From Bacteroidales bacterium (lineage in GTDB: Bacteria > Bacteroidota > Bacteroidia > Bacteroidales > FEN-979): 64,000 nt of DNA. A program made the position numbers and the translations under genes. The stretch covers positions 154 through 64,153 of the forward strand of contig JBBQUQ010000004.1 of assembly GCA_038212325.1 (NCBI GenBank), in the 5' to 3' direction. The notes under the pieces were generated by a model. It saw only the letters and a list, made by a program, of their open reading frames with translations. It was not told the DNA's origin and made no database searches. Each line of letters opens with the position of its first letter. Positions within the stretch are counted from its first letter, which is position 1. Below are positions 1,498 through 55,441 of the stretch, one piece after another.

Positions 1498-1553
1498 TGT
1501 TCTGATAAGGCAAGGATAGTTAAACTTATACGAAAAATATAAAAATCACACAT

Positions 1554-1802: not shown

Positions 1803-1871
1803 TCTTACGTTATAGCATCGATTTGGCATGCTTATTGCTATTGATGCATCTTATTGAGTTAATACAAATCT

Positions 1872-1908
1872 CATTGACCTTATTGTAATAAATACAATAA
1901 GGTCAATG
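1872..1908 (+). terminator. Perfect 16-bp inverted repeat with a 5-nt loop downstream of the mini-protein gene
   Basis: cattgaccttattgta / ataaa / tacaataaggtcaatg. There is no T-tract after it, so it could be a terminator or a protein-binding dyad. Confidence 0.45.
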
Positions 1909-1968
1909 CATAAATAAACCATCATAATCTATTCAGCATATTTTTAACACAACCAAACATTTTTAATC

Positions 1969-2400
1969 ATGAGAAAATTCATTTTATTGTTTGCCTTCGG
2001 GCTTATCGGCGTATTTGGTTATTCACAGGCATTGAAACCAGACCAGGTACCCCAATTGATCAAAGACAGAGTCCAGTTTAAGTTTCCGCAGGCTATGGAT
2101 GTTCCTGTTACCTGGAGCAAGGAAAAAGGCGACTACAAGGCAAGTCTCACCATCATGGATTCACCTGCCTGGATCGTGGTTGACACCCTTGGAAAAATTA
2201 AACGTGTTGAGCGGAGAATTCATGAGTCGTACCTGCCTGAGAAAGCAAAAAAATACATGAAATCGCTTGATCCAAATTACACGGTTATTTCTGTGACTCA
2301 AATTACCGACCATAAGGAGAAGGTTACCTATAATACGGTGGCCAAGATCAAGACCGATTTTATATTTGACGGCAAAGGGGATGTTGCAGGGAAAAAATAA
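1969..2400 (+). CDS. Small periplasmic PepSY-like (DUF2874-type) protein
   Basis: Signal peptide MRKFILLFAFGLIGVFGYSQA. The body has two ~55-aa halves with the lysine-rich beta pattern of PepSY-like proteins. This is recognition by eye only. Confidence 0.45.
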   Translation: MRKFILLFAFGLIGVFGYSQALKPDQVPQLIKDRVQFKFPQAMDVPVTWSKEKGDYKASLTIMDSPAWIVVDTLGKIKRVERRIHESYLPEKAKKYMKSLDPNYTVISVTQITDHKEKVTYNTVAKIKTDFIFDGKGDVAGKK

Positions 2401-2421
2401 TTAACATTCCCCTGGTTTCAT

Positions 2422-4197
2422 TCAAGGGCTGATCAGGTTTTCTTTACCTCCGTACTTAGTGTATTCACGGGCGTACCAGTTTGCCGAATCAGCCTTTTTT
2501 GCGTCATGTCGATAATAGAGACAAAGGCTGCGGTATGCTCTTGCAAGGTCGGGCTTTAACCGGATGGCGCGAAGCCACATGGAAGCAGCCTTTTCCTTTT
2601 CACCACTGTTCACCAGGTAGATCCCGAGGTTGTAAGCGGCATCAGCATTTGCCGGATCGTTGTTTACGGCCTCCTGGCAGCGTTTTACAGCATTGGTATA
2701 ATCGCCTTTCTGAAAATAATCGGCACTGGATTCAAGGCACAGCGCAATGAAATTCGCTCGTCCTTCCGGATCGCCGTATCCTTGCTGAAAAGCCATCGAA
2801 AAGTACCGGTATGCAGTTTCATAGTCCTTTTTATCGGCAAAACTGATCATGCCAAGCTGATACTTGAATTCAGGGTATGATTTGAGCCTTTCGGCTTCAA
2901 GCAAGTATTGCTCGTAGCGAACGTTGTCTTTTTGTTTGAAGTAGTACCTCCCCATATAGTATTGAAACCATGATTTATCCGGCATATACCTGATGGCCGA
3001 TCCCCAGTAATTCACCCCATTCTCATACCTGGTTTGCTGGGAAAACGCGAAGATTGACAGCAGGACCATGAGGCCCCCAAGGATGAAACTGTAAGGCCGC
3101 TTTGCAAGTTGAAACCATTTCTCGGGGCAGGCGGCAAGAAGCATGATCACAAACCCGATCGCCGGAAGGTAGGTGCGGTGGAGCAGGTATTCGAAATTGT
3201 CGTCGGCTGATACCAGCCGTACGAACATGTTGGGCAGGCAGAAACCAATGAACCAGGCTGCGCCCAACAAAATCAGCGGAAGGGATTTCTGCTGTTTCTT
3301 CACAACCATAAATCCCAGGATCAACAGCATGGCAACGACGCCTGCCAGGGTATATGCCGGTGTAAAAACAGGGGTGACCGGCAGATTAAACGGAAAGAAA
3401 AACCGGGATACGACTTCCGGGATAAAAGGAAGGTTCTTCAGCATCGCATGAAGGCCCAATTGGTTATCGCTGCGGTGATCAATGGAAATCAACCTGAGGT
3501 AATACCAGGAGGCCATCACCAATACCCATGCCCCAACTAACTTCATGGCTCGTCCATCCAGGAATCTCTCTTTTTTCAGCAATAGGTACAGCACGAACAG
3601 GATTGGGAAGAACACCCCTGATTCTTTGGAGAAAACTGCTCCGGCAAGACACGCCACATGCATGATTAGAACATGGATCTTCTTATCCCTGAGGAACAGG
3701 ATAAAGAGGGAAAACGAAAGCGTTCCGAACAACGTGACCAGCAAATCGCCCCTCGCGGGTATCCAGAGCACTGCCTGTCCCATCATCGGATGAACCGAGA
3801 ACATGAGCGTAGCAACCAGCGCTTTCGGCTTGGTGAAACCCAGCAGTCCGAGCAACCATAGCAAGCTGATACAGGTCAGAACATGGATGATGATATTCCC
3901 TGCGTGGTATACTGCCGGATTCTTTCCTCCGATCGCAGCTTCCAGCATCATCGATACCGTTTGCAATGGACGGTAATAAGGGCTAAGGCTGGCAAAAAAC
4001 GCATCGCTGCGAAACGCACGGCCCAGGTTCGAAAGGTCGCTTATTTTTTCATAGTTGCTCAGCACCAGGATATCGTCATCGAAATAGACAAATCCAAGCC
4101 GAAGGGCTGAAACGTACAACAGTAATGGGATGACGATGACAAGCAAGGCGGAGTAGCGGTAAAAATCGGCTTCTTTTATTGGAGTATTTGCTTTCAC
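2422..4197 (-). CDS. PMT/TMTC-like GT-C membrane glycosyltransferase fused to C-terminal TPR repeats (paralog 1)
   Basis: About 10 TM helices. An acidic FDDD motif sits directly after TM1 (LGFVYFDDDILVL). The C-terminal ~170 aa are TPR-like (AYNLGIYLVNSGEKEKAASMWLRAIRLKPDLARAY). The only start in frame is GTG at 4197. Confidence 0.7.
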   Translation of the reverse strand: MKANTPIKEADFYRYSALLVIVIPLLLYVSALRLGFVYFDDDILVLSNYEKISDLSNLGRAFRSDAFFASLSPYYRPLQTVSMMLEAAIGGKNPAVYHAGNIIIHVLTCISLLWLLGLLGFTKPKALVATLMFSVHPMMGQAVLWIPARGDLLVTLFGTLSFSLFILFLRDKKIHVLIMHVACLAGAVFSKESGVFFPILFVLYLLLKKERFLDGRAMKLVGAWVLVMASWYYLRLISIDHRSDNQLGLHAMLKNLPFIPEVVSRFFFPFNLPVTPVFTPAYTLAGVVAMLLILGFMVVKKQQKSLPLILLGAAWFIGFCLPNMFVRLVSADDNFEYLLHRTYLPAIGFVIMLLAACPEKWFQLAKRPYSFILGGLMVLLSIFAFSQQTRYENGVNYWGSAIRYMPDKSWFQYYMGRYYFKQKDNVRYEQYLLEAERLKSYPEFKYQLGMISFADKKDYETAYRYFSMAFQQGYGDPEGRANFIALCLESSADYFQKGDYTNAVKRCQEAVNNDPANADAAYNLGIYLVNSGEKEKAASMWLRAIRLKPDLARAYRSLCLYYRHDAKKADSANWYAREYTKYGGKENLISP

Positions 4198-4271
4198 AAG
4201 GATCGATATATGAAAAGTTAAAGGTAGAAATATTTATCATTCGGGACAAAATTCGTAATTTCGCCTTTCAT

Positions 4272-6851
4272 ATGGCACTCATAAAAAAAGACAACTCCTT
4301 ATCAGTTTTCGGATTTCCTGCTTTCTGGATGGCCCTTATTGCCATCGCCACCTTTGTGGCCTACCTTCCGGCTTTAAGGGGGAATTTCACGAGTTGGGAC
4401 GACATGGTCTATGTTGTTGAAAATCCATACATCAAGTCCCTTTCGGCAAAAAACATCGCCGAAATCTTCTCCACCAATTTCATGGGGAATTATCACCCCC
4501 TGTCGATGTTGTCGCTTTCAATTGATTACCAGATAAATAAATTTGACCCATTTGTCTTTCACCTCAACAATATCCTTATACACATTGTAAATTCCATTCT
4601 GGTGCTGCTGGTAATTAAACAGCTTACCGGGAAGTTGCAGGTCGCTGTAATTGCTGCGTTGCTATTTGGCGTGCATGCACTACACGTGGAGTCGGTGGCC
4701 TGGATTTCGGAAAGGAAAGATGTGCTGTACACCTGTTTTTACCTGTTATCGATATATAGCTATCTGCGTTATTTTCCGAAAAAAGACTACAAGTGGTTTG
4801 GCTTAAGCCTCCTTTTCTTTCTGCTTTCATGTTTGTCGAAGGGACAGGCTGTGACCCTTGCTGTCACACTTTTCCTGGTTGATATTTTCGCCGGCAGGAA
4901 GTGGACTGAGATTAAAATTCTGTTGGAAAAGGTCCCTTTTCTCATCCTGGCCCTGATATTTGGCATAGTTGCATTCGGGGCACAGCAGGGGGCTGATGCG
5001 ACCATCATGGCTAACTTCCCTGTTCAGCAGCGTGTTGCTTTTGCGTCATATGGCTTAATCATGTATATCCTGAAACTGATATACCCTTTCGCACTGTCGG
5101 TGTACTATCCTTACCCGATACTTGGAAATACAGGCGAAGTTCCCTTGTTATTCTGGCTCTGCATCATTCCGGCCATTGCTTTTATCGTTCTTGTGTTCCT
5201 GGCGTGGAAGCGTTCAAAACCGTTATTTTTCGGGACAGCTTTCTTTCTTTTAAATATAGTCTTGCTGCTGCAACTGTTACCAGTGGGGCGGGCTATTATG
5301 GCCGACCGGTATGCTTACATCCCTTCCATCGGCTACTGTTTTCTTGTCGGGGTTTACATCTCCGACCGGAGGTATATCAAGTTGGATAAGGTTGCCTGGG
5401 GAATTGTATCACTTTATGCTGCCTTGCTTATGTTCCTTACATTCCAGCAAAGCAAGATATGGCTTAACTCCCAAACGTTATGGAGTGACGCCATCGCAAA
5501 AAACCGCAATGTTCCGGTTGCCTGGTACAACCTGGGAAATACCCATATGGATTCTGCCAATTATAAAGCGGCGATATCCGAATACACTGAATGCCTCAAA
5601 CTTCAGCCCGATTTTTGGAAAGCATATATAAACCGGGGGAATGCCAAAAGCAAAACAAACGATTTTATCGGGGCGATCGCTGATTTTGATGCCATGCTCA
5701 GGATTGATTCAACCTCGGCAACTGCTTATATCAACCGTGCCCTTGCACGCAGGATGCTTCAGGATTACCCTAATGCGCTAAAGGATTATAATATTGCGGT
5801 GCGATTGAAGCCTGATCAGATGGAACTCTTCGCTGCCCGGGCAAACCTGAAGCTTGACATGAAAGATTATGAAGGTGCCATCCGTGATTTTGACGAGGCG
5901 ATTAAAATAAATCCGAAGGCCCCTGCAGTTTACACCAACCGGGCAATCGTCAAGAAAGCCGGGAATGATCTGTCCGGAGCACTTGCAGATTATAACACAG
6001 CCATTGAGCTTGACCCCAACAACAGCGAGTTTTACAATAACAGGGGCAACCTGAAATTTCAATTGAACGATTTCAAGGGAGCCATTGATGATTATTCGGC
6101 AAGTATCCGCCTGTCGCCAAAGGATTACCTTGGATATAAGAACCGGGCAGCCGTCAGATTATCCCTGAAACAATATGATGAGGCCCTGGCCGATCTTAAG
6201 GCTGGCATCAGGCTGAACGCGAAATCGGGCGAACTATTTTACACGATGGCCATGGTGAAAAAGGCGATGAATGATCTGCCCGGGGCCAAAGCCGATTACA
6301 AGACAGCGGTAGCGTTGGATCCGGGCTATTCTTCGGCGGGCTACATGAAGAGCATCGGCATTTCAAGCAATGAAATGCCAGGGCTTCAGCCTTCCCAGTT
6401 AAACGAGCAGGGGCTGGTGATGGAATCACAAGGCAAGCTGCAGGAGGCTGCTGATTTTTACAAAAAAGCGCTGACGCTTAAGCCGGATTTTGCAGAAGCC
6501 TGGTTTAACCTTGGAAACGTGTATGGCAAGACAAATCGTTTCAGCGAAGCCATGAATTGCCTGAACAATGCCATCAAACATAAGCGTGATTATGTGCAGG
6601 CGCTGTCAAGCCGGGGTATCGCGTTTGCCAGCATGGGGAAAACCGCCGAGGCGATCAGCGACCTTTCGGCGGCAATCAAGGAGAACCCCGAATACGCCGT
6701 TGCTTACTTTAACCGCGCTCTGGTGTATCTCAATACCGGCAAAAAGGATCTTGCCTGCGTTGACCTGCAAAAGGCTGTCAAACTGGGATATAATGCAGCG
6801 TACCCGATCTTTCAGAAGGAGTGCCAGGGCAAACAGGCCATGAAATTGTGA
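4272..6851 (+). CDS. PMT/TMTC-like GT-C membrane glycosyltransferase fused to a long C-terminal TPR array (paralog 2)
   Basis: The first ATG is at 4272; the ORF-track start at 4179 is TTG and overlaps the divergent gene. WDD follows TM1 (NFTSWDDMVYVVENPYI). A multi-TM core is followed by ~12 TPR units (AWYNLGNTH..., AYINRGNAK..., AYFNRALVY...). Confidence 0.8.
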   Translation: MALIKKDNSLSVFGFPAFWMALIAIATFVAYLPALRGNFTSWDDMVYVVENPYIKSLSAKNIAEIFSTNFMGNYHPLSMLSLSIDYQINKFDPFVFHLNNILIHIVNSILVLLVIKQLTGKLQVAVIAALLFGVHALHVESVAWISERKDVLYTCFYLLSIYSYLRYFPKKDYKWFGLSLLFFLLSCLSKGQAVTLAVTLFLVDIFAGRKWTEIKILLEKVPFLILALIFGIVAFGAQQGADATIMANFPVQQRVAFASYGLIMYILKLIYPFALSVYYPYPILGNTGEVPLLFWLCIIPAIAFIVLVFLAWKRSKPLFFGTAFFLLNIVLLLQLLPVGRAIMADRYAYIPSIGYCFLVGVYISDRRYIKLDKVAWGIVSLYAALLMFLTFQQSKIWLNSQTLWSDAIAKNRNVPVAWYNLGNTHMDSANYKAAISEYTECLKLQPDFWKAYINRGNAKSKTNDFIGAIADFDAMLRIDSTSATAYINRALARRMLQDYPNALKDYNIAVRLKPDQMELFAARANLKLDMKDYEGAIRDFDEAIKINPKAPAVYTNRAIVKKAGNDLSGALADYNTAIELDPNNSEFYNNRGNLKFQLNDFKGAIDDYSASIRLSPKDYLGYKNRAAVRLSLKQYDEALADLKAGIRLNAKSGELFYTMAMVKKAMNDLPGAKADYKTAVALDPGYSSAGYMKSIGISSNEMPGLQPSQLNEQGLVMESQGKLQEAADFYKKALTLKPDFAEAWFNLGNVYGKTNRFSEAMNCLNNAIKHKRDYVQALSSRGIAFASMGKTAEAISDLSAAIKENPEYAVAYFNRALVYLNTGKKDLACVDLQKAVKLGYNAAYPIFQKECQGKQAMKL

Positions 6852-6881
6852 AATGGTGAATAGCGAAATGGCGAAATCAAG
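6843..6881. repeat. Tandem 8-nt word array (AAATGGTG family), 5 degenerate units
   Basis: aaattgtg aaatggtg aatagcg aaatggcg aaatcaag. The array spans the stop codon at 6849-6851 and the ATG at 6853. Confidence 0.85.
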
Positions 6882-9354
6882 TAGCGCGGAGATGAAACAA
6901 AAACCAACCAAAAAACCATCAAGCCAGCCGGTTACCAGGCCGGCCGGTAAAAAAACGGAAAACAAAACGTTCGAACGATACGCCCTTTGGATTACCCTTG
7001 GGCTGATTTCGGTTATAATCCTGGTCATTTTCTTCGATTTCATCATGGGGAACAGGTATTATTTGTTCAAGGACATCGGCAGTGATTCATTGAACGGATA
7101 TTATCCTTATATTCTCAACAGTGTAAGATATCTCGGGGAAGAGGGCTTTCCCCGGTGGTCATTTGCGATGGGCATGGGACAGTCGATCTATCCCGGCAGC
7201 TTTGGGGATCCCTTTGCGTTTATCATTAACCTGATGGGTACGCAAAAGGTTGCCTACGGGATCATATTATCCGATATCAGCAAGTATATCGTAACCTGCT
7301 GGCTCTTCTTTCTCTACCTGAGGCTGCTGAACCTGAGTAAGACTTCCGCAATGATTGGTTCACTCTTATTTTCCCTGTCGGGATTCATGGTCGTAGCCGG
7401 AAGCTGGTACACTTTTTCCTTAGAGGTGGTTTACATGGCTTTTTTATTGTTTGCTTTTGAGAAACTTTACAAACAAAACAACTGGTTTTTTTTCCCCATC
7501 GCCATTGCCCTGATCGGCATGTATGTGCCATTCAACATTTACCTGTACGGTCTTTTCCTGATCATTTATATGATATTCCGTTTTTTAACCGATGACACTC
7601 CTCGTTTTAAAAATTTCCTTTCCCTGGTTTTGAAAATGGCGGGATTGACCATACTCGGGCTGTTAATCGGTTCTGTCTTTTTCATTCCAAACTTACAACG
7701 TTTGATTGACAGTCCGCGGGTAACCGGAAATTCCTCGTATTTCATGACCCTGATGAGCAAGCCGGTTTTCAGCCTGGCATCGCACGATCACTATGTCACA
7801 TCCATCATGCGCGCCTTTGGAAACGATCTCATTGGTAACGGCAGCAATTTCAAAGGATGGTACAACTACCTCGAAGCGCCATTATTTTATATCGGATTGC
7901 TCCCCTTGCTTCTGTTCACGCAAGTATTTTCCCTTATTGGCCGCAGGAAAAAAATCATCTATGCAGTTTTCCTGGTGATTTACCTGGTTCCCGTGATCTT
8001 CCCATTTTTCCGCAACGCTTTCTGGGCCTTCACCGGTGATTATTACAGGGGGTTTTCCCTCTTTTTTTCATTTATACTGCTGCTATTCAGCCTGCAGGTG
8101 ATCAGCGAGCTTGACAAAGGCAAAAAGGTTAACCTGGTGATTTTGCTGATCACAACCGGTGTGTTGCTGGTGATGCTTTATTATCCTTATCAGAATATCG
8201 ACCAGGTTATCAGGAAAGACCTGCAATCGGTGGTAATGATCTTTCTTTTCCTCTATGCGATTGTTCTCCTGCTGTTTAATTTTATTGAGAACAGGGCAGT
8301 GTTAAAGACAATACTGGTGCTCCTTGTATGTACAGAACTGATCTATTTTAATGGGAAAACCGTAAGGGAAAGAGATACAATCACCCGCACCGAATGGCAG
8401 CAAAAAGCCGGGTACAATGATTATACAGTTGATGCAGTATCCTGGCTCGGGGATATTGACAAGGGTTTTTTCAGGCTCAACAAGGACTACTCCTCGGGGC
8501 CTGCCATTCATCGCAGCGTGAACGATGCACTGGTGCAGGACTATTATGGCACTCCTTGCTACAGTTCGTTCAACCAGAAATACTATATCCGGTTCCTCGA
8601 AGAGGCGGGGGTGATCGAGAAAGGCAGGGAGGACCAGTCACGCTGGGCCCGTGGATTGTCGGAGCGGCCATTGCTCCAAATCATGGGGAGTGTCAAATAC
8701 AATCTCAGCACCAGGGACAGGTCCTTTTTCCAGAATATGGGGTACGATTCCATCAACAAATTCGGAAATGTAAAATTGCTGAAGAACCGTTATTTCATGC
8801 CGCTCGGATACACATACGACCGTTACATCCCTATAAGCCTGTTCCGGAAACTATCCATGGCGCAACGTGATTTTGCATTGCTGCAAGCCTTTATTGCCGA
8901 GGAACCCATTGACCCGGCTTTTTCCGCCCTGAAGGAATTCACCATCGGCGACACCACCAAATCACTTACTTTTGAGGAGGTATCAGCAGATGTAAACGAT
9001 CGAAAAGCCGACACCTTGCAAATCACCTCTTTTTCCGACAACCACATCAGCGGAAAGATCAGCCTGAAAGAAGCCAGGGTGCTGTTCTTAAGCATCCCAT
9101 ATGACAAAGGGTGGAAGGGGATGATCGACAACAAACTGCAGGAGCCATCCCTGTGCAACGCCGGGTTTCTCGGCTTTTATCTTGGCAAGGGGGATCACAC
9201 CATTCAACTCGATTACGGGGTGTATCATATGGCACTCAGCGTATGGCTTTCGTTGGCCGGCATTGTGATTTTAGTTCTACTGGCTCTATACAGGTACCGG
9301 GCAACCCTGATTGGGAAGATAATAAAACCAGAAAATGTGAAACATTCTTCATAA
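6853..9354 (+). CDS. YfhO-family GT-C membrane glycosyltransferase
   Basis: A large polytopic protein. The C-terminal extracytoplasmic block (SIPYDKGWKGMIDNKLQEPSLCNAGFLGFYLGKGDHTIQLDY) plus a final TM is characteristic of YfhO. The start is uncertain because codons 1-13 are repeat-encoded; an alternative ATG is at 6892. Confidence 0.7.
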   Translation: MVNSEMAKSSSAEMKQKPTKKPSSQPVTRPAGKKTENKTFERYALWITLGLISVIILVIFFDFIMGNRYYLFKDIGSDSLNGYYPYILNSVRYLGEEGFPRWSFAMGMGQSIYPGSFGDPFAFIINLMGTQKVAYGIILSDISKYIVTCWLFFLYLRLLNLSKTSAMIGSLLFSLSGFMVVAGSWYTFSLEVVYMAFLLFAFEKLYKQNNWFFFPIAIALIGMYVPFNIYLYGLFLIIYMIFRFLTDDTPRFKNFLSLVLKMAGLTILGLLIGSVFFIPNLQRLIDSPRVTGNSSYFMTLMSKPVFSLASHDHYVTSIMRAFGNDLIGNGSNFKGWYNYLEAPLFYIGLLPLLLFTQVFSLIGRRKKIIYAVFLVIYLVPVIFPFFRNAFWAFTGDYYRGFSLFFSFILLLFSLQVISELDKGKKVNLVILLITTGVLLVMLYYPYQNIDQVIRKDLQSVVMIFLFLYAIVLLLFNFIENRAVLKTILVLLVCTELIYFNGKTVRERDTITRTEWQQKAGYNDYTVDAVSWLGDIDKGFFRLNKDYSSGPAIHRSVNDALVQDYYGTPCYSSFNQKYYIRFLEEAGVIEKGREDQSRWARGLSERPLLQIMGSVKYNLSTRDRSFFQNMGYDSINKFGNVKLLKNRYFMPLGYTYDRYIPISLFRKLSMAQRDFALLQAFIAEEPIDPAFSALKEFTIGDTTKSLTFEEVSADVNDRKADTLQITSFSDNHISGKISLKEARVLFLSIPYDKGWKGMIDNKLQEPSLCNAGFLGFYLGKGDHTIQLDYGVYHMALSVWLSLAGIVILVLLALYRYRATLIGKIIKPENVKHSS

Positions 9355-9395
9355 TTTTAAGCACGAAATAACTTATCCATTTAAAAGAAGATTTT

Positions 9396-10403
9396 ATGAT
9401 TAAATTAGGCATTATTGGCTACGGGTACTGGGGTCCGAACCTGGTCAGAAACTTCTCAGGCAATAAAAACTTCGAGGTAAAAAAGGTCGCTGATACCAGG
9501 CAGGAGCGGCTCGACCTGGTTAAAAAACAATATCCATCCATCATCACAGTGCTGGATTCATCTGATATTCTCAACGACCCCGACATTGATGCTGTTGCCA
9601 TCGCAACACCCGTTTTTGCGCATCATGCGCTGGCTAAAGCAGCCCTTTCAAACGGCAAACACGTTGTATTGGAAAAACCCATGACATCGTCGTCGGCGGA
9701 AGCAGAAGAGCTGATCAATCTTTCTATGGCTAAAGGTTTATCGCTGATGGTTGATCACACCTTCCTGTATACGGGGGCAGTGCAAAAAATCAAGCAACTG
9801 ATTGACCAGGATACGATCGGCCACATCAAATACCTTGATTCGACCAGGATCAACCTGGGTTTGTTTCAGCCGGACATCAACGTTTTGTGGGACCTTGCAC
9901 CTCATGATATCTCGATACTTACACACCTGGTCGGTGAAAAACCATACAGCCTGAATGCTTCAGGTATTTCACACACGAACAACGGACTGGAGAATATTGC
10001 TTTCCTGACAGTGAATTTTGAATCCGGGTTTATTGCACATTTCAACTGTTCGTGGACATCGCCGGTAAAAATCAGGCTGATGCTGATTGGAGGAGATAAA
10101 AAAATGATTGTTTTTAACGACGTTGAGCCTACGGAGAAAATAAAGATATACGATACCGGGTATACCGTTAAGAATGATGAGGATAAGCAAAAATTGCTGG
10201 TGGACTACCGAAGCGGAGATATTTTCATTCCCAAAACCCCGTCCACCGAAGCATTGGCACTGATGGCTGAAGATTTTGCCCAATCAATCCTGGACAAGAA
10301 AACACCTGTGGCAGATTTCAACTCCGGGCTTTCGGTCATCAAGATTCTTGAAGCATCGAATGAGTCACTTAAAAACCGGGGGAAAGAGATCATCCTCAAA
10401 TAA
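9396..10403 (+). CDS. Gfo/Idh/MocA-family sugar-nucleotide 3-dehydrogenase (WbpB/WlbA/GnnA-like)
   Basis: N-terminal Rossmann motif IGYGYWGPNLVRN and the EKPM motif (VVLEKPMTSS). It lies directly upstream of an LbH acetyltransferase and a DegT aminotransferase. Confidence 0.8.
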   Translation: MIKLGIIGYGYWGPNLVRNFSGNKNFEVKKVADTRQERLDLVKKQYPSIITVLDSSDILNDPDIDAVAIATPVFAHHALAKAALSNGKHVVLEKPMTSSSAEAEELINLSMAKGLSLMVDHTFLYTGAVQKIKQLIDQDTIGHIKYLDSTRINLGLFQPDINVLWDLAPHDISILTHLVGEKPYSLNASGISHTNNGLENIAFLTVNFESGFIAHFNCSWTSPVKIRLMLIGGDKKMIVFNDVEPTEKIKIYDTGYTVKNDEDKQKLLVDYRSGDIFIPKTPSTEALALMAEDFAQSILDKKTPVADFNSGLSVIKILEASNESLKNRGKEIILK

Positions 10404-10413
10404 TTATTCATTT

Positions 10414-10905
10414 ATGGAAATATTAAACATCGATCAACCAAGGCAGGCATTGCGGAATGTAAAGGTCGGCAAGGATGTCAGGATTTTCAATTTTGTAAAT
10501 GCCTATGAATGCTCCATTGACGATGGCAGTAAAATAGGTGCCTTTGTCGAAATTCAAAAGAATGTTATCATCGGCAAGAACTGTAAAATATCAAGTCACA
10601 CCTTCATTTGCGAAGGAGTAGAGATCGACGACAATGTGTTCATCGGGCATAATGTCACCTTCATTAACGACAAGTATCCCAGGGCGACAAATCCTGAGGG
10701 GGGGTTGCAGACGGAGGCGGACTGGAAGGTTGAACGTACCTTCATTAAAAAGGGGGCATCAGTAGGCTCCTCCTCCACCATCCTGTGCGGTGTGACCGTT
10801 GGCGAGAATGCCATTGTGGGAGCCGGCAGCATTGTGACCAAAGATATTCCTGCCAATGCGGTTGTGGCGGGTAATCCCGCACGGATCATCCGCTCCCTAA
10901 AATAA
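10414..10905 (+). CDS. Left-handed beta-helix N-acetyltransferase (WbpD/WlbB/QdtC-like)
   Basis: Hexapeptide repeats run throughout (IGKNCKISSHTFICEGVEIDDNVFIGHNVTF...VGENAIVGAGSIVTKDIPANAVVAGNPARI). The ATG at 10414 is 10 nt after the preceding stop. The track ORF start at 10276 overlaps the upstream gene. Confidence 0.8.
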   Translation: MEILNIDQPRQALRNVKVGKDVRIFNFVNAYECSIDDGSKIGAFVEIQKNVIIGKNCKISSHTFICEGVEIDDNVFIGHNVTFINDKYPRATNPEGGLQTEADWKVERTFIKKGASVGSSSTILCGVTVGENAIVGAGSIVTKDIPANAVVAGNPARIIRSLK

Positions 10906-10929
10906 TTATAACGCTAACAACTTAACTTT

Positions 10930-12033
10930 ATGGACTCCAAAAAAATTCCTTGTCTTGACCTGAAGGGGCAGCACCAGCTTATAAAAGATGAAGTTTTTGC
11001 CCAATTTGAAAAAGTATTCGAAAATACCGCCTTTTCTGGCGGTCCGTTCGTGGCAGCCTTTGAAGAGGCCTTTGCAAAATTCTGCGGAACCCGTTATGCC
11101 GTCGCGGTAAACAGTGGCACCTCCGCCCTGCACCTGGCCATGCTGGCCCTTGGCATCGGAACGGGCGATGAAGTGATCATTCCGGCGAACACCTTCATTG
11201 CAACCCCCTGGGGGCCCTCATACGCAGGCGCCACCCCGGTATTTACGGACTGCACTCCCGACACGTGGGAAATTGATCCTGCAAAAATCGAAGCCCGGAT
11301 AACGGCAAAAACAAAAGCCATCATCGGGGTTCACCTTTACGGCCAGCCTTTCGACGTAGATGCCGTAACGGAGATTTGCCGGAAACACAACCTGTTTTTG
11401 ATTGAGGATGCGGCACAGGCACACGGTGCGAAATACAAAGGAACCAGGGTGGGTGGTTTTGGCGAAATGGCCTGCTTCAGCTTTTATCCCGGAAAAAATT
11501 TAGGTGCCTGCGGAGAGGGCGGCGCCATCACCACAAACAACGAATCCTACTACAAGCACCTTCAAAGTTTGCGCAACCATGGCAGTGCAGAACGGTATTA
11601 CCATGACGAAATCGGTTATAATTACAGGATGGGCGGACTGGAAGGAGCATCACTCAAAGTTAAGCTGCAATACCTGGAGGGATGGAACAACCGCCGGAGG
11701 GAGATTGCAAAGCGCTACCTGGCTGAAATTAATAATCCTAAAATCAAGATGCAACTGCAGCCTGATCAGACGCAGTCTGTTTTTCATCTGTTTGTTGTGA
11801 CCTGTGAGGAGAAAGATGCTTTCGTGAAGTATTTAACGGAACACAACATCATTCCTGCTTTTCATTACCCGGTACCATGCCATCTGCAAAAAGCCTACGC
11901 ACATCTGAATTACAAAAAAGGTGATTGCGTGCATGCTGAATACCTGGCAGAAAATTGCATTTCGCTGCCCATGTTTGCCGAGCTGAATGAGGAGGATGTA
12001 AGCACCGTGATCAAGGCAGTTAACAGCTTTTAA
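10930..12033 (+). CDS. DegT/DnrJ/EryC1/StrS-family PLP aminotransferase (WbpE/WlbC-like)
   Basis: Typical family sequence: AVNSGTSALHLA, DAAQAHGA, and SFYPGKNLGACGEGGAI with the PLP lysine. Confidence 0.9.
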   Translation: MDSKKIPCLDLKGQHQLIKDEVFAQFEKVFENTAFSGGPFVAAFEEAFAKFCGTRYAVAVNSGTSALHLAMLALGIGTGDEVIIPANTFIATPWGPSYAGATPVFTDCTPDTWEIDPAKIEARITAKTKAIIGVHLYGQPFDVDAVTEICRKHNLFLIEDAAQAHGAKYKGTRVGGFGEMACFSFYPGKNLGACGEGGAITTNNESYYKHLQSLRNHGSAERYYHDEIGYNYRMGGLEGASLKVKLQYLEGWNNRRREIAKRYLAEINNPKIKMQLQPDQTQSVFHLFVVTCEEKDAFVKYLTEHNIIPAFHYPVPCHLQKAYAHLNYKKGDCVHAEYLAENCISLPMFAELNEEDVSTVIKAVNSF

Positions 12034-12036
12034 GGC

Positions 12037-12693
12037 ATGAAGGAAGGGTTCATTTTTGGCTGCAGTGCGCAAGGCCGGGTTGCCTTATCTATTTTACAGC
12101 TCGAATATCCTGAAACAGCCTGGTTTTTTATTGACGACAACCCCGAAATGCTGAACCAGGTCATTAATGGCTCAAGCGTAATTGGCGGACTAGGCACCCT
12201 GGCAGCTAAAAACAGGCCCAAACTGCACATCGCACTGGGGAATCCAACGGTCAAAAGAAAAATTGCCAGCAAGTGCACGATGTTGGATATCGAATTGATC
12301 GGGGCTGTGCATCCGTCGGCGATTATTGCATCCACTGCGATCATCGGCGAAGGCGCAACCATTGGAGCAGGCGTAATCATAAACACGGATGCACGCATAG
12401 GCAATTTTGCGCTCATCAATACCGGCGTTATCATTGAACATGATTCCCAGGTGGGTGATTATGCAAATATTTCGCCAGGGGCATGCATCGGGGGCCGGGT
12501 AACGATTGAGGAGGAGGCGTTTATTGGCTCGGGGGCCATCGTTTTAGCGAGGACCACCGTGGGGAAACGATCGATTGTCGGCATGGGCGCAGTTGTAACC
12601 CGGAGCATACCCGACAATACCCTTGCTTATGGAGTACCCGCGAACGTAATTAAGGAAATTGACGATCATTTCGATTGGAGTAAAGTTTTATAA
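12037..12693 (+). CDS. NeuD/PglD-family sugar N-acetyltransferase
   Basis: An N-terminal Rossmann-like subdomain (FIFGCSAQGRVALSIL...FIDDN) is followed by a hexapeptide beta-helix (IGEGATIGAGVIINTDARIGNFALINTGVIIEHD...). Confidence 0.8.
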   Translation: MKEGFIFGCSAQGRVALSILQLEYPETAWFFIDDNPEMLNQVINGSSVIGGLGTLAAKNRPKLHIALGNPTVKRKIASKCTMLDIELIGAVHPSAIIASTAIIGEGATIGAGVIINTDARIGNFALINTGVIIEHDSQVGDYANISPGACIGGRVTIEEEAFIGSGAIVLARTTVGKRSIVGMGAVVTRSIPDNTLAYGVPANVIKEIDDHFDWSKVL

Positions 12694-12702
12694 AGAGAAG
12701 CG

Positions 12703-13881
12703 ATGGTATTGTTCGACGACCAGATCCCACTAATGAAACCCTGGCTTACCGAGGAGGAGTGGTATGCAGTGAAAGAGGTGATATTAAGCGGCTGGGTAAG
12801 TCAGGGGCCCAAGGTTCGTGAGTTTGAAAATGCAGTGGCTGAGTTTATCGGCGCCAAACATGCCGTGGCGGTCAATGCCTGCACCTCGGCCATTCACCTC
12901 GGGCTGCGCATCCAGGGGGTGAATTACGGCGATGATGTGATCCTGGCCGACACGACCTGCATGGCCAACGTAAATGCCATCAAAATGGCGGGGGCGAACC
13001 CGGTTTTCGTCGATGTGGATGAGGATACCTATAACATTGATCCAGGTCTTATTGAAGCCGCAATCACTCCAAAAACAAAGGCGATCCTAAATATTGACCA
13101 GATCGGGCTGCCCAACGACCTCGATGCCATAACCGCAATTGCAACTAAGCATAACCTGGTCGTTGTTGACGATGCCGCCACCGCACTGGGGAGCAAATAT
13201 AACGGTGCCTATTTAGGATCGCAGGGCATTGTCACCACCTTCAGTTTTCATCCGCGGAAAATGATTACAACCGGCGAGGGGGGCATGTTATTGACAGATG
13301 ATGCCGATATCGCTGAAAATGCCCGCATCCTGCGAGCAACAGGCGCTTCAGTTTCTGACCTTGCCCGGCACAATGCAAAAGGGATCATCCTGCAGAAATA
13401 TTATGACAGCGGGTATAACTACCGGCTGACCGACATCCAGGCGGCCATCGGGATCATTCAAATGAAGAAGATCCACCAGATACTGGCCATGCGTGCCGAA
13501 CAGGCTCGTTTTTTCGATACAGCCCTGGCGGAAATTGATGAGTTGATATCGCCATTTGTTCCGGAGTATGCCACACATGCCTATTCATCATACCTGGTTA
13601 AAATCAGTGACCACGCAAAAATCACCCCGGAATATCTCGTCAATAAAATGGCTGAAAAGAACATATCATGCCGGTTTGGCATTCAACCATTGCACCAGGA
13701 GCCATACTTTGACAATAGCCATTGGCATGACAGCATGTTTCCGGTGAGTTGCAAACTGGCACGCAAAACATTTTTCATTCCGATATTCCCCGGCCTTACC
13801 GAAGAAAACATGCATTTCATCATTGACACGCTGAAGCAGCTGATCCATGACTTTAATGTGTCAACGCAAAACCAATCCTGA
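12703..13881 (+). CDS. DegT-family PLP aminotransferase (second paralog, PglE-like)
   Basis: Motifs AVNACTSAIHLG, DDAATALGS and SFHPRKMITTGEGGML. Confidence 0.9.
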   Translation: MVLFDDQIPLMKPWLTEEEWYAVKEVILSGWVSQGPKVREFENAVAEFIGAKHAVAVNACTSAIHLGLRIQGVNYGDDVILADTTCMANVNAIKMAGANPVFVDVDEDTYNIDPGLIEAAITPKTKAILNIDQIGLPNDLDAITAIATKHNLVVVDDAATALGSKYNGAYLGSQGIVTTFSFHPRKMITTGEGGMLLTDDADIAENARILRATGASVSDLARHNAKGIILQKYYDSGYNYRLTDIQAAIGIIQMKKIHQILAMRAEQARFFDTALAEIDELISPFVPEYATHAYSSYLVKISDHAKITPEYLVNKMAEKNISCRFGIQPLHQEPYFDNSHWHDSMFPVSCKLARKTFFIPIFPGLTEENMHFIIDTLKQLIHDFNVSTQNQS

Positions 13882-13887
13882 CAATTA

Positions 13888-14631
13888 ATGCCGGAAAAAA
13901 TCAATACGAGCATCAGTTTCATACTTCCTGTTTACAATGAAAAAAACCTGCTGGAGCCTGCTGTATCGCGCTGTCTGAAGGCCCTTTCAGAAACATTCAC
14001 TGATTTTGAGATCATCCTGGTCGACGATGGAAGCACTGACGGGATATCAGAAGTCCTTGATTCCCTTGAAAGCAGCAGCGCAAACCTGAAGGTGCTTCGC
14101 AACATCGTCAATCTGAATGTCGGCATAGCCGTGCAACGCGGGTTAATGTCGGCCCGATGCGATTATGCCGTGCACAATGCCGTTGACCTTCCCCTTGCGC
14201 CCGAAGATCTTGCGGCACTGATGGAGCAAATGAACGGCTGCGACCTGCTTGTGCTGGAACGAAGCTCCTATGCAGGCTATATGAAATGGCGTGTCGTCAC
14301 TTCCCTGGTCAACCGGATGCTCCTGAAAATTTTCTTTCCTTCCGCGGTGAAAGGAATGTTCGATCTGAATTACACACAGATCTACCGGACAGAAATTTTA
14401 CCGAAAATAATCCCGCTCGCAAAAAGCCCCGCCTTTACGACCCCAGAAATGATCATCAGAGCCAAGTATCTGAACCTGAATGTAAAACAGGCATTGGTGG
14501 ATTATATGCCACGACTCTCAGGCACAGGTGCGTTCGGGAAGCCCCATGATATTTTATGGAGCATGTATGACATGTTCAGATTCCGCCTGAAATTATGGAG
14601 AAACAAGTCAAAAACACTTCACAGGAAATAA
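13888..14631 (+). CDS. Small soluble family-2 glycosyltransferase (polyprenyl-phosphate sugar synthase-like)
   Basis: ISFILPVYNE...FEIILVDDGSTDG is the GT2 signature. The protein is 247 aa with no C-terminal TM helices visible. Confidence 0.7.
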   Translation: MPEKINTSISFILPVYNEKNLLEPAVSRCLKALSETFTDFEIILVDDGSTDGISEVLDSLESSSANLKVLRNIVNLNVGIAVQRGLMSARCDYAVHNAVDLPLAPEDLAALMEQMNGCDLLVLERSSYAGYMKWRVVTSLVNRMLLKIFFPSAVKGMFDLNYTQIYRTEILPKIIPLAKSPAFTTPEMIIRAKYLNLNVKQALVDYMPRLSGTGAFGKPHDILWSMYDMFRFRLKLWRNKSKTLHRK

Positions 14632-14721
14632 TTGCAGGAATAATCAGTTTATATTAGCAATGATCCCTGGCAGGAATGGGGAACTTAATGTTGCCGGGTC
14701 CCGGCTTTTAAAGTTGAACTT

Positions 14722-15693
14722 ATGGAGATAGCAAATTCTACTATTCTTGTCACCGGGGGCGCAGGGTTTATCGGCTCCTATGTGGTTGAGGAATTACTTT
14801 TACTGAAACCGAAGAAGATCATCATTCTGGATAATCTCATCAGGGGAACCAGGGAGAACATGAAAAGCTTCACCGGCCACCAGGTTGTTGATTTCATCCA
14901 GGGCGACATGAGAGACCACGGACTTCTTGAAAGATGCATTTCAGGTTCCGACTATGTATTCCATATGGCCGCCTTACGCATCAATGCCTGTGCCGCCGAC
15001 CCCGCCGCCGGATTTAAAGTTATGCTCGAAGCCACATTCGACTTGGCGGAGCTTTGCGTTAAATACAAAGTAAAAAAGGTTATCTACAGTTCAAGCGCTT
15101 CAGTTTACGGCTTGGCTCAACATTTCCCTACGCCGGAAGCAGACAACCCCTATAACAATCAAACCTTTTACGGTGCGGCCAAACTCTGGGGCGAGCAATT
15201 GTTCAGGAGCTATAAATTCATGTATAATCTTGATTACGTGGCGTTGCGCTATTTCAATGCGTATGGCCCCCGTATGGATACCGACGGTAAATATACCGAA
15301 GTGATGATCAAGTGGCTTGATTGCATCCGCGACAACCGTAACCCGCTCATCTATGGCGATGGCTCAACCACCATGGATTTTGTATATGTGAAGGATATTG
15401 CCAAAGCCAATATTGCAGCGTTACGGTCGGACGTTACCGATGAAGCATTCAACATCGGCAACTGTGAAGAGACCAGCCTGAAGGAACTGCTTGACGTATT
15501 TTTGAAGGTGAATCATTCGAACATGAAACCCGAGCACCGGGAAGAAAATTCGGTGAATCCCGTAAGCCGAAGGCTCGCTGATATAGGCAAGGCCAAAGAA
15601 TTGCTTGGGTTTTCTCCTGCAACAACTCTGGAGGCAGGGCTTGCAGAGCTGAGTGCCTGGTATTTTGAAAAACAACAACTTAAGAACGCATGA
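14722..15693 (+). CDS. NAD-dependent epimerase/dehydratase (extended SDR)
   Basis: ILVTGGAGFIGSYV glycine motif, catalytic YGAAK, and SSSASVYG. Confidence 0.85.
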   Translation: MEIANSTILVTGGAGFIGSYVVEELLLLKPKKIIILDNLIRGTRENMKSFTGHQVVDFIQGDMRDHGLLERCISGSDYVFHMAALRINACAADPAAGFKVMLEATFDLAELCVKYKVKKVIYSSSASVYGLAQHFPTPEADNPYNNQTFYGAAKLWGEQLFRSYKFMYNLDYVALRYFNAYGPRMDTDGKYTEVMIKWLDCIRDNRNPLIYGDGSTTMDFVYVKDIAKANIAALRSDVTDEAFNIGNCEETSLKELLDVFLKVNHSNMKPEHREENSVNPVSRRLADIGKAKELLGFSPATTLEAGLAELSAWYFEKQQLKNA

Positions 15694-15694
15694 A

Positions 15695-16822
15695 ATGATT
15701 CCTATAGCGAAACCATATCTTACAGAGGATGAAGCGAAAGCGGCCTACGACACTGTATTGTCAGGTTGGGTGACCCAGGGACCGAAGGTCCAGGAATTTG
15801 AGGAGAAGTTCGCACAGTATACCGGTGCGAAGTATGCCGTGGCCGTTTCGAGCTGCACCACCGCCCTTCACCTTGCAATGATCGTCGCCGGCATTGGCGA
15901 AGGCGATGAGGTGATCTGCCCTTCAATGAGCTACATTGCCACAGCAAATTCGATCAAATATACCGGGGCTGTTCCTGTTTTTGCAGAGGTTGATGCAGAT
16001 TACAACCTGGATGTTGCTGATGCCGAAAGGCGGATCACAACGAAAACCAAGGCGATCCTCCTGGTGCACCAGATGGGCATGCCGGCAAACATCGATTCAT
16101 TTAAATCATTATGCGCCCGGCATAACCTGTTGCTGATTGAAGACGCAGCATGCGCCATCGGTTCCTCTTACAAAGGGCAAAAAATCGGCGCACACGCTGA
16201 CCTGGTCTGCTTTTCCTTTCATCCGCGAAAAGTGATCACCACGGGAGATGGCGGCATGATCACCACCTCGAATGATGCCTTCCATAAACGGATGAAGATA
16301 TTGCGGCAGCATGGGATGAGCATCAACGACCGGGAGCGGCACCTCTCCTCCAAAATCTTATTTGAGGAACATGTCGAGGTCGGATACAATTACCGGATGA
16401 CGGATATCCAGGCAGCAGTGGGAATTAAGCAGCTTGAAAAACTCGACTGGCTGATCAGGGAGAGAAGAAAAATCGCCTTGCAGTATCTTGCCGCATTCAA
16501 GGAGGTCAAAGCATTCAGGCTACCAGTTGAAAAGGAGGGATATTTTACAAATTACCAGTCGTTCAGCATCTACTTAACCCCTTCGTGTCGTATATCACGA
16601 AATGACCTCATGCAGAACCTCCTCGACCGGGGAATTTCAACCCGCAGGGGCATCATGCTGTCGCACACAGAAAAGGCATATACTCATCTGAATTATAAGG
16701 ATGACCTGCCATTGTCGGGCGACCTGAATGAGAAAAGCATTCTTTTACCTTTGTATGTACCGATGCCGCAAGAGGATGTAGCGAAAGTCATTCAATCGGT
16801 GCTGGAATTAATAAAGAGTTAA
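15695..16822 (+). CDS. DegT-family PLP aminotransferase (third paralog)
   Basis: The ATG at 15695 is 1 nt after the SDR stop codon, and MIPIAKPYLTEDE is a typical family N-terminus. Motifs AVSSCTTALHLA, DAACAIGS and SFHPRKVITTGDGGMI. Confidence 0.9.
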   Translation: MIPIAKPYLTEDEAKAAYDTVLSGWVTQGPKVQEFEEKFAQYTGAKYAVAVSSCTTALHLAMIVAGIGEGDEVICPSMSYIATANSIKYTGAVPVFAEVDADYNLDVADAERRITTKTKAILLVHQMGMPANIDSFKSLCARHNLLLIEDAACAIGSSYKGQKIGAHADLVCFSFHPRKVITTGDGGMITTSNDAFHKRMKILRQHGMSINDRERHLSSKILFEEHVEVGYNYRMTDIQAAVGIKQLEKLDWLIRERRKIALQYLAAFKEVKAFRLPVEKEGYFTNYQSFSIYLTPSCRISRNDLMQNLLDRGISTRRGIMLSHTEKAYTHLNYKDDLPLSGDLNEKSILLPLYVPMPQEDVAKVIQSVLELIKS

Positions 16823-33731: not shown

Positions 33732-33740
33732 GTCCTGCTC

Positions 33741-55433: not shown

Positions 55434-55441
55434 GGCAGAAG

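Follow-up and report, generated by a model that had tools for sequence, protein, structure and literature searches.

In the protein O-glycosylation (Pgf) system of Streptococcus mutans, a GT2 glycosyltransferase (PgfS) and an epimerase (PgfE) work with two YfhO-type glycosyltransferases of the GT-C class (PgfM1 and PgfM2), transfer takes place outside the membrane, and the cluster includes genes for surface proteins, the substrate adhesins (10.1101/2024.05.05.592596). The teichoic acid systems CsbB/GtcA/YfhO of Bacillus subtilis and GtlA/GtlB of Listeria combine a GT2 that forms an undecaprenyl-phosphate-linked sugar, a flippase that brings it across and a GT-C that transfers it at the outer face (PMC5836110, PMC8035078). 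In the eukaryotic TMTC enzymes, a tetratricopeptide repeat (TPR) array lies on the catalytic-loop side of the membrane, and a list of TMTC motifs has been compiled (PMC7801869; Eisenhaber et al. 2021). Here we describe a locus that brings features of these systems together in a 64,000-nucleotide stretch of DNA (hereafter the window) from an uncultured Bacteroidales bacterium of the GTDB lineage FEN-979 (assembly GCA_038212325.1, contig JBBQUQ010000004.1, positions 154 to 64,153). Two TPR-fused GT-C enzymes (TPR-GT-Cs), a YfhO-family GT-C and an eight-gene sugar cassette are encoded side by side, and we lean towards reading them as a two-layer envelope-glycosylation cluster, in which a variable module of YfhO and sugar cassette (6853-16822) adjoins a conserved flank (1-6851).

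The open reading frame (ORF) map places ten tightly packed + strand genes at 4272-16822 (4272-6851, 6853-9354, 9396-10403, 10414-10905, 10930-12033, 12037-12693, 12703-13881, 13888-14631, 14722-15693 and 15695-16822), with intergenic gaps, in order, of 1, 41, 10, 24, 3, 9, 6, 90 and 1 nt, none of which could fit an additional gene. A minus-strand TPR-GT-C gene is divergent at 2422-4197. These eleven genes, with their order and spacing, agree with an initial annotation made from the sequence alone, and Pfam and NCBIfam matches back each family that it named. The start of the left-handed beta-helix (LbH) N-acetyltransferase was set at 10414, giving 163 aa in line with homologues of 163-169 aa at related loci L005 and L016 (an ORF from 10276 would overlap the preceding gene), and that of the third DegT aminotransferase at 15695 (375 aa), matching the gene calls of relatives. 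Related loci, numbered with the prefix L, were gathered by a YfhO genome scan, homologue look-ups and a metagenome scan, and about 11 have the same core (L002, L003, L004, L006, L016, L035-37, L102 and L103). The arrangement is not a product of chance: the full 11-gene order was found again in L016, at 70-91% protein identity, and the core in about ten more loci. Exact look-ups with the window's YfhO and 143-aa protein had no match, and a Logan read-assembly copy of the GT2 region was the one direct counterpart retrieved.

The core runs from type IX secretion system (T9SS)-tailed cohesin/SprB-type proteins through a T9SS protein of ~690 aa, a PID-CTERM mini-protein and a 143-aa protein to two TPR-GT-Cs and YfhO, the second TPR-GT-C being divergent in the window and co-directional in L003 and L006. 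Downstream of YfhO, at least four cassette types occur. The first is the window's own, which L016 shares along with the same right flank; the second combines a split transketolase, a fusion of short-chain dehydrogenase/reductase (SDR) and GT2 (SDR::GT2) and methyltransferases (L002, L003, L014 and L007-L009); the third has a DegT, an acetyltransferase and a 316-aa GT2 (L035-37 and L103), which in L103 form a minimal cassette of these three genes directly after YfhO; and the fourth has two FdtA proteins, a GNAT-family protein and an AMP-binding enzyme (L102). Cassette content is different again in L006. Against this background the 859-aa TPR-GT-C of the window (4272-6851) stays constant, being 76% identical to its counterpart in L016 (same cassette), 75% in L102 (type 4) and 76% in L036 (type 3), whereas YfhO falls from 71% in L016 to 48% in L102 and 49% in L036. 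Against L102 and L036, identity holds at 70-74% through the final quarter of the TPR-GT-C and is 44-48% over the first 200 residues of YfhO, so the drop begins at the gene boundary. In L005, the first three cassette genes are 79-88% identical to those of the window, yet YfhO is just 50% identical, which points to an exchange of cassette parts.

Because YfhO identity falls as the cassette changes and the TPR-GT-C holds steady, YfhO alone appears tied to the amino sugar. From these comparisons we conclude that YfhO and the cassette probably form a variable, sugar-specific module and that the conserved flank includes the TPR-GT-Cs, whose donor may be something other than the cassette sugar. The initial annotation had described the TPR-GT-Cs as hard-wired to the amino-sugar cassette and had looked to relatives for synteny between the two. 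The synteny is there for the core order, and the TPR-GT-C pair nonetheless stands beside at least four different cassettes; the hard-wiring is further contradicted by close TPR-GT-C homologues that are stand-alone genes. Two of these, P0013 and P0020, at 47-50% identity, are solitary genes in housekeeping surroundings.

The 859-aa TPR-GT-C (4272-6851, +) matches PMT_2 (35.1 bits against a cut-off of 26.1) and TPR_1 (E 5.6e-71), and is predicted to have about 11 transmembrane (TM) helices followed by a long C-terminal TPR solenoid. A full-length AlphaFold2 model, based on an alignment of 52 relatives, had a mean predicted local distance difference test score (pLDDT) of 92.3, and a model of the GT-C domain (residues 1-414) a pLDDT of 91.4 and a predicted TM-score of 0.92. 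Full-length inputs, namely the full alignment in a profile search and the full model in Foldseek, retrieved TPR proteins only; the repeats swamped the signal, so a domain-only model was needed. Searched with that model against the PDB, Foldseek ranks 1-32 were exclusively GT-C or GT-C-fold proteins, among them the oligosaccharyltransferase STT3/OST, AglB, PglB, Pmt4, Pmt1-Pmt2, ArnT, DPY19, AftA/B/D and subunit U of the glycosylphosphatidylinositol (GPI) transamidase, at probabilities of 0.99-1.0 and TM-scores of 0.32-0.54, while a PDB sequence search with the GT-C domain gave no match. The structure model and its PDB matches thus bear out the GT-C fold proposed for this enzyme in the initial annotation, which had also named a conserved acidic loop as a mark of such a protein. 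That loop is present: D43-D44 in the first loop is found in 51/51 aligned sequences, the divergent paralogue included. Elsewhere in the alignment R148, D150, R346 and Y349 are conserved in 52/52 sequences and D345 in 51/52, and K190 is invariant.

Of the published TMTC motifs, the 859-aa protein keeps M1 (D43-D44), M3 (R148/D150), the lysine of M4 (K190) and M7 (D345-R346-x-x-Y349). M2 (SHKSYRP) has shrunk to NYHP, leaving only Y-[HR]-P; the glutamate of M4 (KE[T/Q]xxT) is replaced by glycine; and M5, the DW motif of the DUF1736 loop, is absent, with no Pfam match to DUF1736. The divergent TPR-GT-C (2422-4197, -; 591 aa; PMT_2 33.4 bits against 26.1, TPR_11 E 5.7e-12) has a short TPR region, reads YYRP at M2, and retains the M4 glutamate together with DD, W144, R148, D150, K190, R346 and Y349, its substitutions being H138M, E140Q, E147A and D345H. 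Both the roughly 11 TM helices and the C-terminal TPR array are likewise features of eukaryotic TMTC1-4. Counting ~11 helices after an N-in first TM helix, and placing the DD loop outside, would locate the TPR array in the periplasm. Unlike eukaryotic TMTC, the family to which these proteins belong is bacterial and has thousands of members: more than 2,600 relatives were found at E <= 1e-10 among 8,000 candidates, and they are very common in Bacteroidota and Ignavibacteria. A bacterial member with a described function was not found in the literature searched. The window holds a third TPR-fused GT-C paralogue (45268-47313, -; 681 aa), 21% identical to the 859-aa protein across both domains, which keeps the DD, Y-R-P, H..H.E, K and ERF motifs and adjoins ksgA and a TPR protein, with sugar genes distant.

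One nucleotide downstream of the 859-aa TPR-GT-C gene lies that of YfhO (6853-9354, +; 833 aa), which matches PF09586 at 219 bits against 28.5 (E 1.8e-64, profile positions 7-625) and has about 10 predicted TM helices. D74, S77 and D78, just past the first TM helix, are invariant in 14 homologues. Its NCBIfam matches are PgfM2 and PgfM1 only, and it is not a member of either: for the PgfM1/PgfM2 equivalogs NF047589/NF047590, scores of 89.2 and 51.4 bits fall far under the respective cut-offs of 1500 and 1400. A PDB sequence search with YfhO gave no match. YfhO homologues are also present in these Gram-negative bacteria, and no paper in the literature searched ties YfhO or TPR-GT-C enzymes to Bacteroidota.

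The sole Leloir-type (nucleotide-sugar-using) glycosyltransferase of the locus is a 247-aa GT2 with no predicted TM helix (13888-14631, +; PF00535, 71.3 bits against 23.3). Among PDB sequences searched with phmmer, chondroitin synthase had the top score, over residues 7-108 only, followed by the dolichol-phosphate mannose synthase (DPMS) of Pyrococcus (5mlz), ArnC (9hwj) and GtrB (5eke), which align through residue ~145 via D-L-x-x-x-P-E; here the stretch N-A-V-D-L-P-L-A-P-E of the window protein aligns on D-A-D-L-Q-x-P-P-E of DPMS/ArnC/GtrB. D47, D100, D119 and D159 are invariant in the family. When its family was compared by hhalign with the GtrB-type GT2s found in sister cassettes, the probability was 98.4% across 218 columns, which span the entire soluble domain and end where the TM hairpin of the sister enzymes starts. 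Those sister enzymes have two C-terminal TM helices, both in the 316-aa GT2 of L103 (ADLQDPPE) and in the SDR::GT2 fusion of L002 and others (DGDGQDPPE). The TM-less GT2 family of ~240 aa spans several phyla, and its members are often named ArnC- or DPM-like by the Joint Genome Institute (JGI). Each related cassette has exactly one glycosyltransferase, always of the GtrB/ArnC/Dpm1 class, and by homology the window GT2 would be a polyprenyl-phosphate sugar synthase.

What the locus leaves out is equally informative. No initiating phosphoglycosyl transferase of WbaP/WecA type, Wzy, Wzz or Wza was found among the annotated genes (every gene up to 23.4 kb and, from 23 to 64 kb, the larger ORFs), and no small multi-TM ORF resembling the flippases GtrA/GtcA/ArnEF was found anywhere in the window; the absences listed in the initial annotation, a flippase among them, are therefore real for this locus. 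The constituents of a Wzx/Wzy- or ATP-binding cassette (ABC)-type polysaccharide locus (initiating transferase, several cytoplasmic glycosyltransferases, Wzx/Wzy or Wzm/Wzt, Wzz and Wza) are accordingly not assembled here. A single GtrB/ArnC-class glycosyltransferase per cassette, with no initiating transferase, Wzy, Wzz/Wza or small flippase, argues for a lipid-phosphate-monosaccharide route, as the initial annotation had proposed, and with the GT2 homologous to GtrB/ArnC-type enzymes over its whole soluble domain, this route is well supported at the level of sequence. The sole flippase-like gene of the window (29638-30879, -) encodes a protein of 413 aa in which 11 TM helices are predicted and which matches the MOP/Wzx family Polysacc_synt below threshold (24.6 against 28.2 bits); the gene adjoins GldG/GldF-like ABC genes at 31974-34472.

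In the window, GT2 and SDR genes (13888-15693) are set apart by 90 nt, a spacing peculiar to it: the same genes overlap by 4 nt in L016 (10001-11727). A weak hairpin lies at 14664-14682. The type-2 cassette (L002 14764-19915, with homologous stretches in L003, L007-L009 and L014) encodes an SDR::GT2 fusion of ~670 aa, GtrB-type and with a TM hairpin; its gene content suggests a branched or methylated sugar, modification of which may occur in association with the lipid-loading enzyme. Distant loci with YfhO and a type-2 cassette have other large membrane proteins in place of TPR-GT-Cs (L007 1076-3283, -, and 9680-12748, +; L008 2905-5484; L014 8512-11205), including a DUF2142 protein, a TMEM260-like protein of 1022 aa and polytopic proteins of 859-897 aa with a C-terminal Laminin_G_3 domain. 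In L017 (where GT2 P0157 is named Candidatus Omnitrophota) and L018, the TM-less GT2 family is found beside a Gfo/Idh/MocA plus LbH pair and an SDR plus DegT pair, along with radical SAM enzymes, a 434-aa PMT_2 protein and polytopic proteins of no assigned class (583 and 658 aa), possibly representing a related pathway in other phyla. Neither the 583- and 658-aa proteins of L017 nor the 859-897-aa Laminin_G_3 proteins of L008, L009 and L014 matched YfhO or PMT_2-domain profiles.

The cassette opens with a Gfo/Idh/MocA oxidoreductase (9396-10403, +; PF01408 E 2.5e-24), whose best NCBIfam match is an archaeal UDP-N-acetylglucosamine (UDP-GlcNAc) 3-dehydrogenase (129.8 bits, under the cut-off of 450) and which is probably a WbpB/GnnA-like UDP-HexNAc 3-dehydrogenase. 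It is followed by the LbH N-acetyltransferase (10414-10905, +; Hexapep E 1.5e-20), WbpD/WlbB-like in its place in the gene order and 88-91% identical to its L005 and L016 homologues, and by DegT aminotransferase 1 (10930-12033, +; PF01041 E 8.5e-121), whose pyridoxal phosphate (PLP) lysine lies in FSFYPGKNLG, a motif that we take to be of C3-aminotransferase type. Families of the kind that could serve 3-dehydrogenation, 3-amination and 3-N-acetylation are adjacent, with every equivalog score under its cut-off, and the block resembles the Wbp/Wlb/Gnn logic for a 3-amino (2,3-diacetamido) sugar. Unlike Wbp/Wlb, the locus has no WbpA 6-dehydrogenase and no WbpI 2-epimerase, the enzymes of the uronic acid form.

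The next block comprises a NeuD/PglD-family sugar N-acetyltransferase (12037-12693, +; TIGR03570, 204.5 bits against 160.8; PglD_N) and DegT aminotransferase 2 (12703-13881, +; PF01041 E 1.8e-107; PLP lysine in the motif FSFHPRKMITTGEGG), a PglD-like plus DegT pairing that recalls PglDEF and Pcryo_0637-0638; unlike PglDEF, the locus is without a PglF-type dehydratase. Beyond the GT2 gene lie an extended SDR of the Epimerase family (14722-15693, +; PF01370 E 2.1e-53) and DegT aminotransferase 3 (15695-16822, +; PF01041 E 2.7e-113), in which the PLP lysine is kept. DegT 2 and DegT 3 both carry FSFHPRKxITTGEGG, presumably the C4-type motif of PglE, PseC and ArnB. All three DegTs retain the catalytic lysine, so none is a PLP-dependent dehydratase of the ColD type, and that assignment was ruled out. 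The trio of GT2, SDR and DegT recurs in L016 and also in other phyla, as shown by L017, where the GT2 is named as Candidatus Omnitrophota. The top PDB sequences for the SDR are 6dnt, 4zrm, 6wjb, WbpP and WbgU; 4zrm is labelled UDP-glucose 4-epimerase, 6dnt and 6wjb were deposited as 'NAD-dependent epimerase/dehydratase', and we take 6dnt, 6wjb, WbpP and WbgU to be UDP-GlcNAc 4-epimerases. By sequence the SDR appears closest to UDP-HexNAc/hexose 4-epimerases, not to dehydratases, ArnA or UXS, and an ArnA-like decarboxylase role was unsupported (ArnA scores 50.2 bits against 777). The cassette has three aminotransferases to two acetyltransferases. A fair reading is that its product would be an unusual UDP-linked di- or tri-amino sugar, not nameable from sequence; a natural 2,3,4-triacetamido sugar is known from the O-antigen of Psychrobacter cryohalolentis (PMC8040287).

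The conserved flank begins with a T9SS-secreted surface protein of which the window holds the C-terminal part only (1-1497, +; TIGR04183 Por_Secre_tail, 26.5 bits against 23): the ORF was listed as 184-1497, its frame is open from base 1 and the gene extends past the window start. Homologues at 42-67% identity occupy the same position in L001-L003, L006, L036, L102 and L103. There follows an 82-aa PID-CTERM mini-protein (1554-1802, +; NF046080 PID_CTERM, 35.9 bits against 26) with a signal peptide, a Gly/Pro-rich stretch of ~28 aa, a PIDGG motif, a single TM helix and a tail of basic residues. Its alignment has 31 invariant columns. Mini-proteins of this family in 78 metagenome loci (among scanned loci L020-L099) have a median length of 84 aa, and in 58/78 of these loci the T9SS protein has a homologue (BLASTP E <= 1e-6) that begins no more than 4.5 kb upstream on the same strand. 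The pair of T9SS protein and PID-CTERM mini-protein is a widespread module in its own right, and its link to glycosylation genes, which is confined to the window's lineage, is suggestive because Pgf clusters likewise encode substrate adhesins. The literature searched made no mention of PID-CTERM.

Between the mini-protein and the divergent TPR-GT-C, a 143-aa exported protein of no known family (1969-2400, +) has one N-terminal hydrophobic segment and no Pfam or NCBIfam match. Its 26 homologues, none with a Pfam domain, are lineage-restricted; the gene is always beside the divergent TPR-GT-C and takes the same position in L001-L004, L006, L035-37, L102 and L103. A perfect 16-bp inverted repeat (CATTGACCTTATTGTA...TACAATAAGGTCAATG, 1872-1908) separates the PID-CTERM gene from the 143-aa gene as a hairpin, possibly a transcript end (bidirectional terminator) or a protein-binding site. 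Apart from this hairpin, promoter and terminator scans and Rfam were of no help on operon structure, and no Rfam family reached its gathering score in the whole window.

Taken together, the gene families, folds, catalytic loops and exchanges described above allow us to propose a sugar donor, lipid carrier and flippase step, an acceptor and a division of labour among the three GT-Cs. In the cytoplasm, the 3-dehydrogenase, the C3-type aminotransferase and the LbH acetyltransferase would produce a 2,3-diacetamido sugar; further changes to it would fall to the SDR, the PglD-like acetyltransferase and the aminotransferases of C4 type, DegT 2 and DegT 3. The GT2 would load this single cassette sugar onto undecaprenyl phosphate (Und-P), a flippase encoded elsewhere would bring the lipid-linked sugar to the periplasmic face, and YfhO would there pass it to an acceptor. 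As relatives have swapped the whole module of YfhO and cassette, the sugar is expected to differ among strains. For the TPR-GT-Cs, the most likely role is protein glycosylation on the periplasmic side, with the T9SS cargo encoded nearby as a possible target and the TPR array as a candidate element in acceptor choice; their donor could be a housekeeping lipid-linked sugar, or the variable sugar under relaxed specificity.

Several findings weigh against this two-layer reading. A flippase is absent from both locus and window. The GT2 is without the TM hairpin of classical GtrB/ArnC enzymes, and its DxD motif begins with Ala in place of Asp. The SDR is 4-epimerase-like, not a 4,6-dehydratase or decarboxylase, so a 4-keto source for the two C4-type aminotransferases is not evident. 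Beyond the close clade, YfhOs are not grouped by cassette, those with type-2 cassettes being mutually 38-50% identical. The loci with the full core all come from one lineage, and adjacency to T9SS and PID-CTERM genes could therefore reflect descent, not function. Lastly, among 35 PID-CTERM loci whose downstream sequence extends for 5 kb or more, just 3 have GT-C/YfhO genes nearby, all three being close relatives of the window; this count rules out the mini-protein and the GT-Cs as one obligatory system. On the first of these points, a flippase may be encoded at another site, as in several known systems.

Among the alternatives, the one that survives best concerns the acceptor only, and overlaps both the two-layer reading and the one-donor scheme discussed below, so the likelihoods that we attach to these readings do not sum to one. 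On this account, which we regard as unlikely though well worth entertaining, the sugar would be placed on lipopolysaccharide (LPS; lipid A, core or O-chain) or on another envelope glycopolymer or glycolipid, in the manner of Gtr, ArnT or teichoic acid-modifying YfhO. In Bacillus and Listeria, homologues of YfhO add sugars to teichoic acids (PMC5836110). ArnT is among the fold matches of the TPR-GT-C domain, variation in rare amino sugars is a typical trait of LPS, and the adjacent mini-protein has no conserved Ser/Thr. The best fold matches, however, are protein-modifying GT-Cs (OST, PglB and PMT), the TPR-fused TMTC enzymes of eukaryotes are linked to protein O-mannosylation (PMC7801869), and the conserved neighbours are secreted surface proteins, with no LPS genes; none of these three points is decisive.

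Somewhat more doubtful is the scheme advanced in the initial annotation, by which all three GT-Cs would draw on the same Und-P-amino-sugar from the cassette and direct it to various periplasmic or outer-membrane acceptors selected by the TPR arrays. The co-directional packing of the genes, down to the single nucleotide between TPR-GT-C and YfhO, is in keeping with it, as are the retention of this adjacency in about 11 loci and the precedent of Pgf, where a single GT2 serves two GT-Cs. It is harder to reconcile with a TPR-GT-C that barely changes among loci whose sugars necessarily differ while YfhO diverges. The solitary homologues at 47-50% identity and the third paralogue of the window also stand alone with no sugar genes nearby, and for solitary enzymes of this kind the donor must be made elsewhere.

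Carried one step further, the two-layer reading would amount to a second, as yet undescribed protein-glycosylation route in Bacteroidota based on periplasmic transfer of single sugars, in which the TPR-GT-Cs capture and glycosylate T9SS-bound adhesins of the cohesin/SprB type after Sec export and YfhO adds a strain-variable rare sugar supplied by an exchangeable cassette, yielding an 'O-antigen-like' glycan on proteins, not LPS; we offer this as speculation, with the odds clearly against it. Still less can be said for the PID-CTERM mini-protein as a dedicated acceptor or primer, its short periplasmic Gly/Pro-rich stretch, anchored in the inner membrane, being glycosylated by the GT-Cs before processing at the PID motif. 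In every locus with sequence available on the upstream side of the GT-C genes, the mini-protein is their nearest conserved neighbour, and its membrane-tethered disordered segment is like the glycosylated disordered regions of streptococcal membrane proteins. Yet no Ser/Thr position is strictly conserved in its alignment (T41 is Val in L003), GT-C/YfhO genes are as scarce near PID-CTERM loci as noted above, and a strong hairpin stands between the mini-protein gene and the next gene, so we consider this role improbable. Least probable of all is that the cassette merely feeds a Wzx/Wzy or ABC polysaccharide locus elsewhere, its adjacency to the GT-Cs being incidental: Wbp-like and PglD/PglE-like families do also make O-antigen and capsule sugars (PMC8040287), and a weak MOP-like protein is encoded 13 kb off, but every cassette has one glycosyltransferase, of a class that makes Und-P-monosaccharides and not repeat units, and YfhO co-varies with the cassette, which in its minimal form in L103 sits directly behind it.

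In the remainder of the window, the minus-strand genes to the right of the cassette are unrelated (rubrerythrin, Fe-S/NADH oxidoreductases and a protein resembling pyruvate phosphate dikinase, PPDK). Two more T9SS cargo genes with a Por_Secre_tail are found at 37389-38504 (-) and 51366-55469 (-), the latter encoding 1367 aa with PKD domains. At 42768-45191 (+), a 441-aa ORF, which of the domains of a TonB-dependent receptor has CarboxypepD_reg and Plug alone, precedes a 314-aa ORF without a Pfam match, and the two may represent a split or frameshifted receptor gene. The G+C content is ~0.45-0.48 over the first 16 kb and rises to 0.53-0.57 past 50 kb.

Returning to the two-layer reading, its consequences depend on the acceptor. 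If T9SS surface proteins are glycosylated, the locus would reveal a further level at which the cell surface varies in this phylum, whose members matter in microbiomes of the gut, the mouth and the environment, and would offer a tractable bacterial model for TMTC-type enzymes, which are linked to human disease. If LPS is the acceptor, it would represent a new Gtr/Arn-like modification with unusual sugars. TPR-GT-Cs are very common in Bacteroidota and Ignavibacteria and YfhO homologues occur there too, both without a described function in the literature searched, and a set of fixed membrane enzymes beside a replaced sugar module allows donor specificity to be read from evolution.

By its logic, the locus belongs among the transmembrane glycosylation systems built of several components (Gtr, CsbB/GtcA/YfhO, GtlAB, Arn, Pgf and GtrB/PgtC2). 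With the Arn pathway it shares an SDR, a DegT, a GT2 resembling ArnC and a PMT_2-clan GT-C in one locus; it differs in having no formyltransferase, ArnD or ArnE/F, and NCBIfam scores for ArnA, ArnB and ArnC are all under their cut-offs. CsbB/YfhO, GtlAB and Gtr follow the same logic, and the window YfhO belongs to the YfhO family proper, whereas the GtrA/GtcA-type flippase of CsbB/GtcA/YfhO and Gtr is not encoded in the window. Lipoteichoic and wall teichoic acids, the acceptor polymers of the teichoic acid systems, are not known from Bacteroidota. In Gtr serotype conversion the GT-C is variable and the sugar constant, whereas in the present locus YfhO changes along with the sugar genes.

Pgf appears to be the closest relative by analogy. 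Like Pgf and GtrB/PgtC2 of S. pyogenes and S. pneumoniae, the locus has one GT2, an SDR epimerase-like enzyme, more than one GT-C and outward catalytic loops. The initial annotation knew of no characterised bacterial system with this combination of genes. That holds for the TPR-GT-C part, whereas a GT2 with an SDR epimerase and two YfhO-type GT-Cs is exactly what streptococcal Pgf comprises. The window system differs from Pgf in its Gram-negative T9SS host, in that two of its three GT-Cs are TPR-fused PMT_2 proteins and not YfhO, in a multi-amino-sugar donor supplied by an eight-gene cassette in place of GalNAc or Glc, and in a GT2 without TM helices. Ultimately, what is new relative to the class as a whole is its occurrence in a Gram-negative T9SS phylum, the two TMTC-like TPR-GT-Cs, the TM-less GT2, and the coupling of YfhO to a hypervariable rare-sugar cassette.

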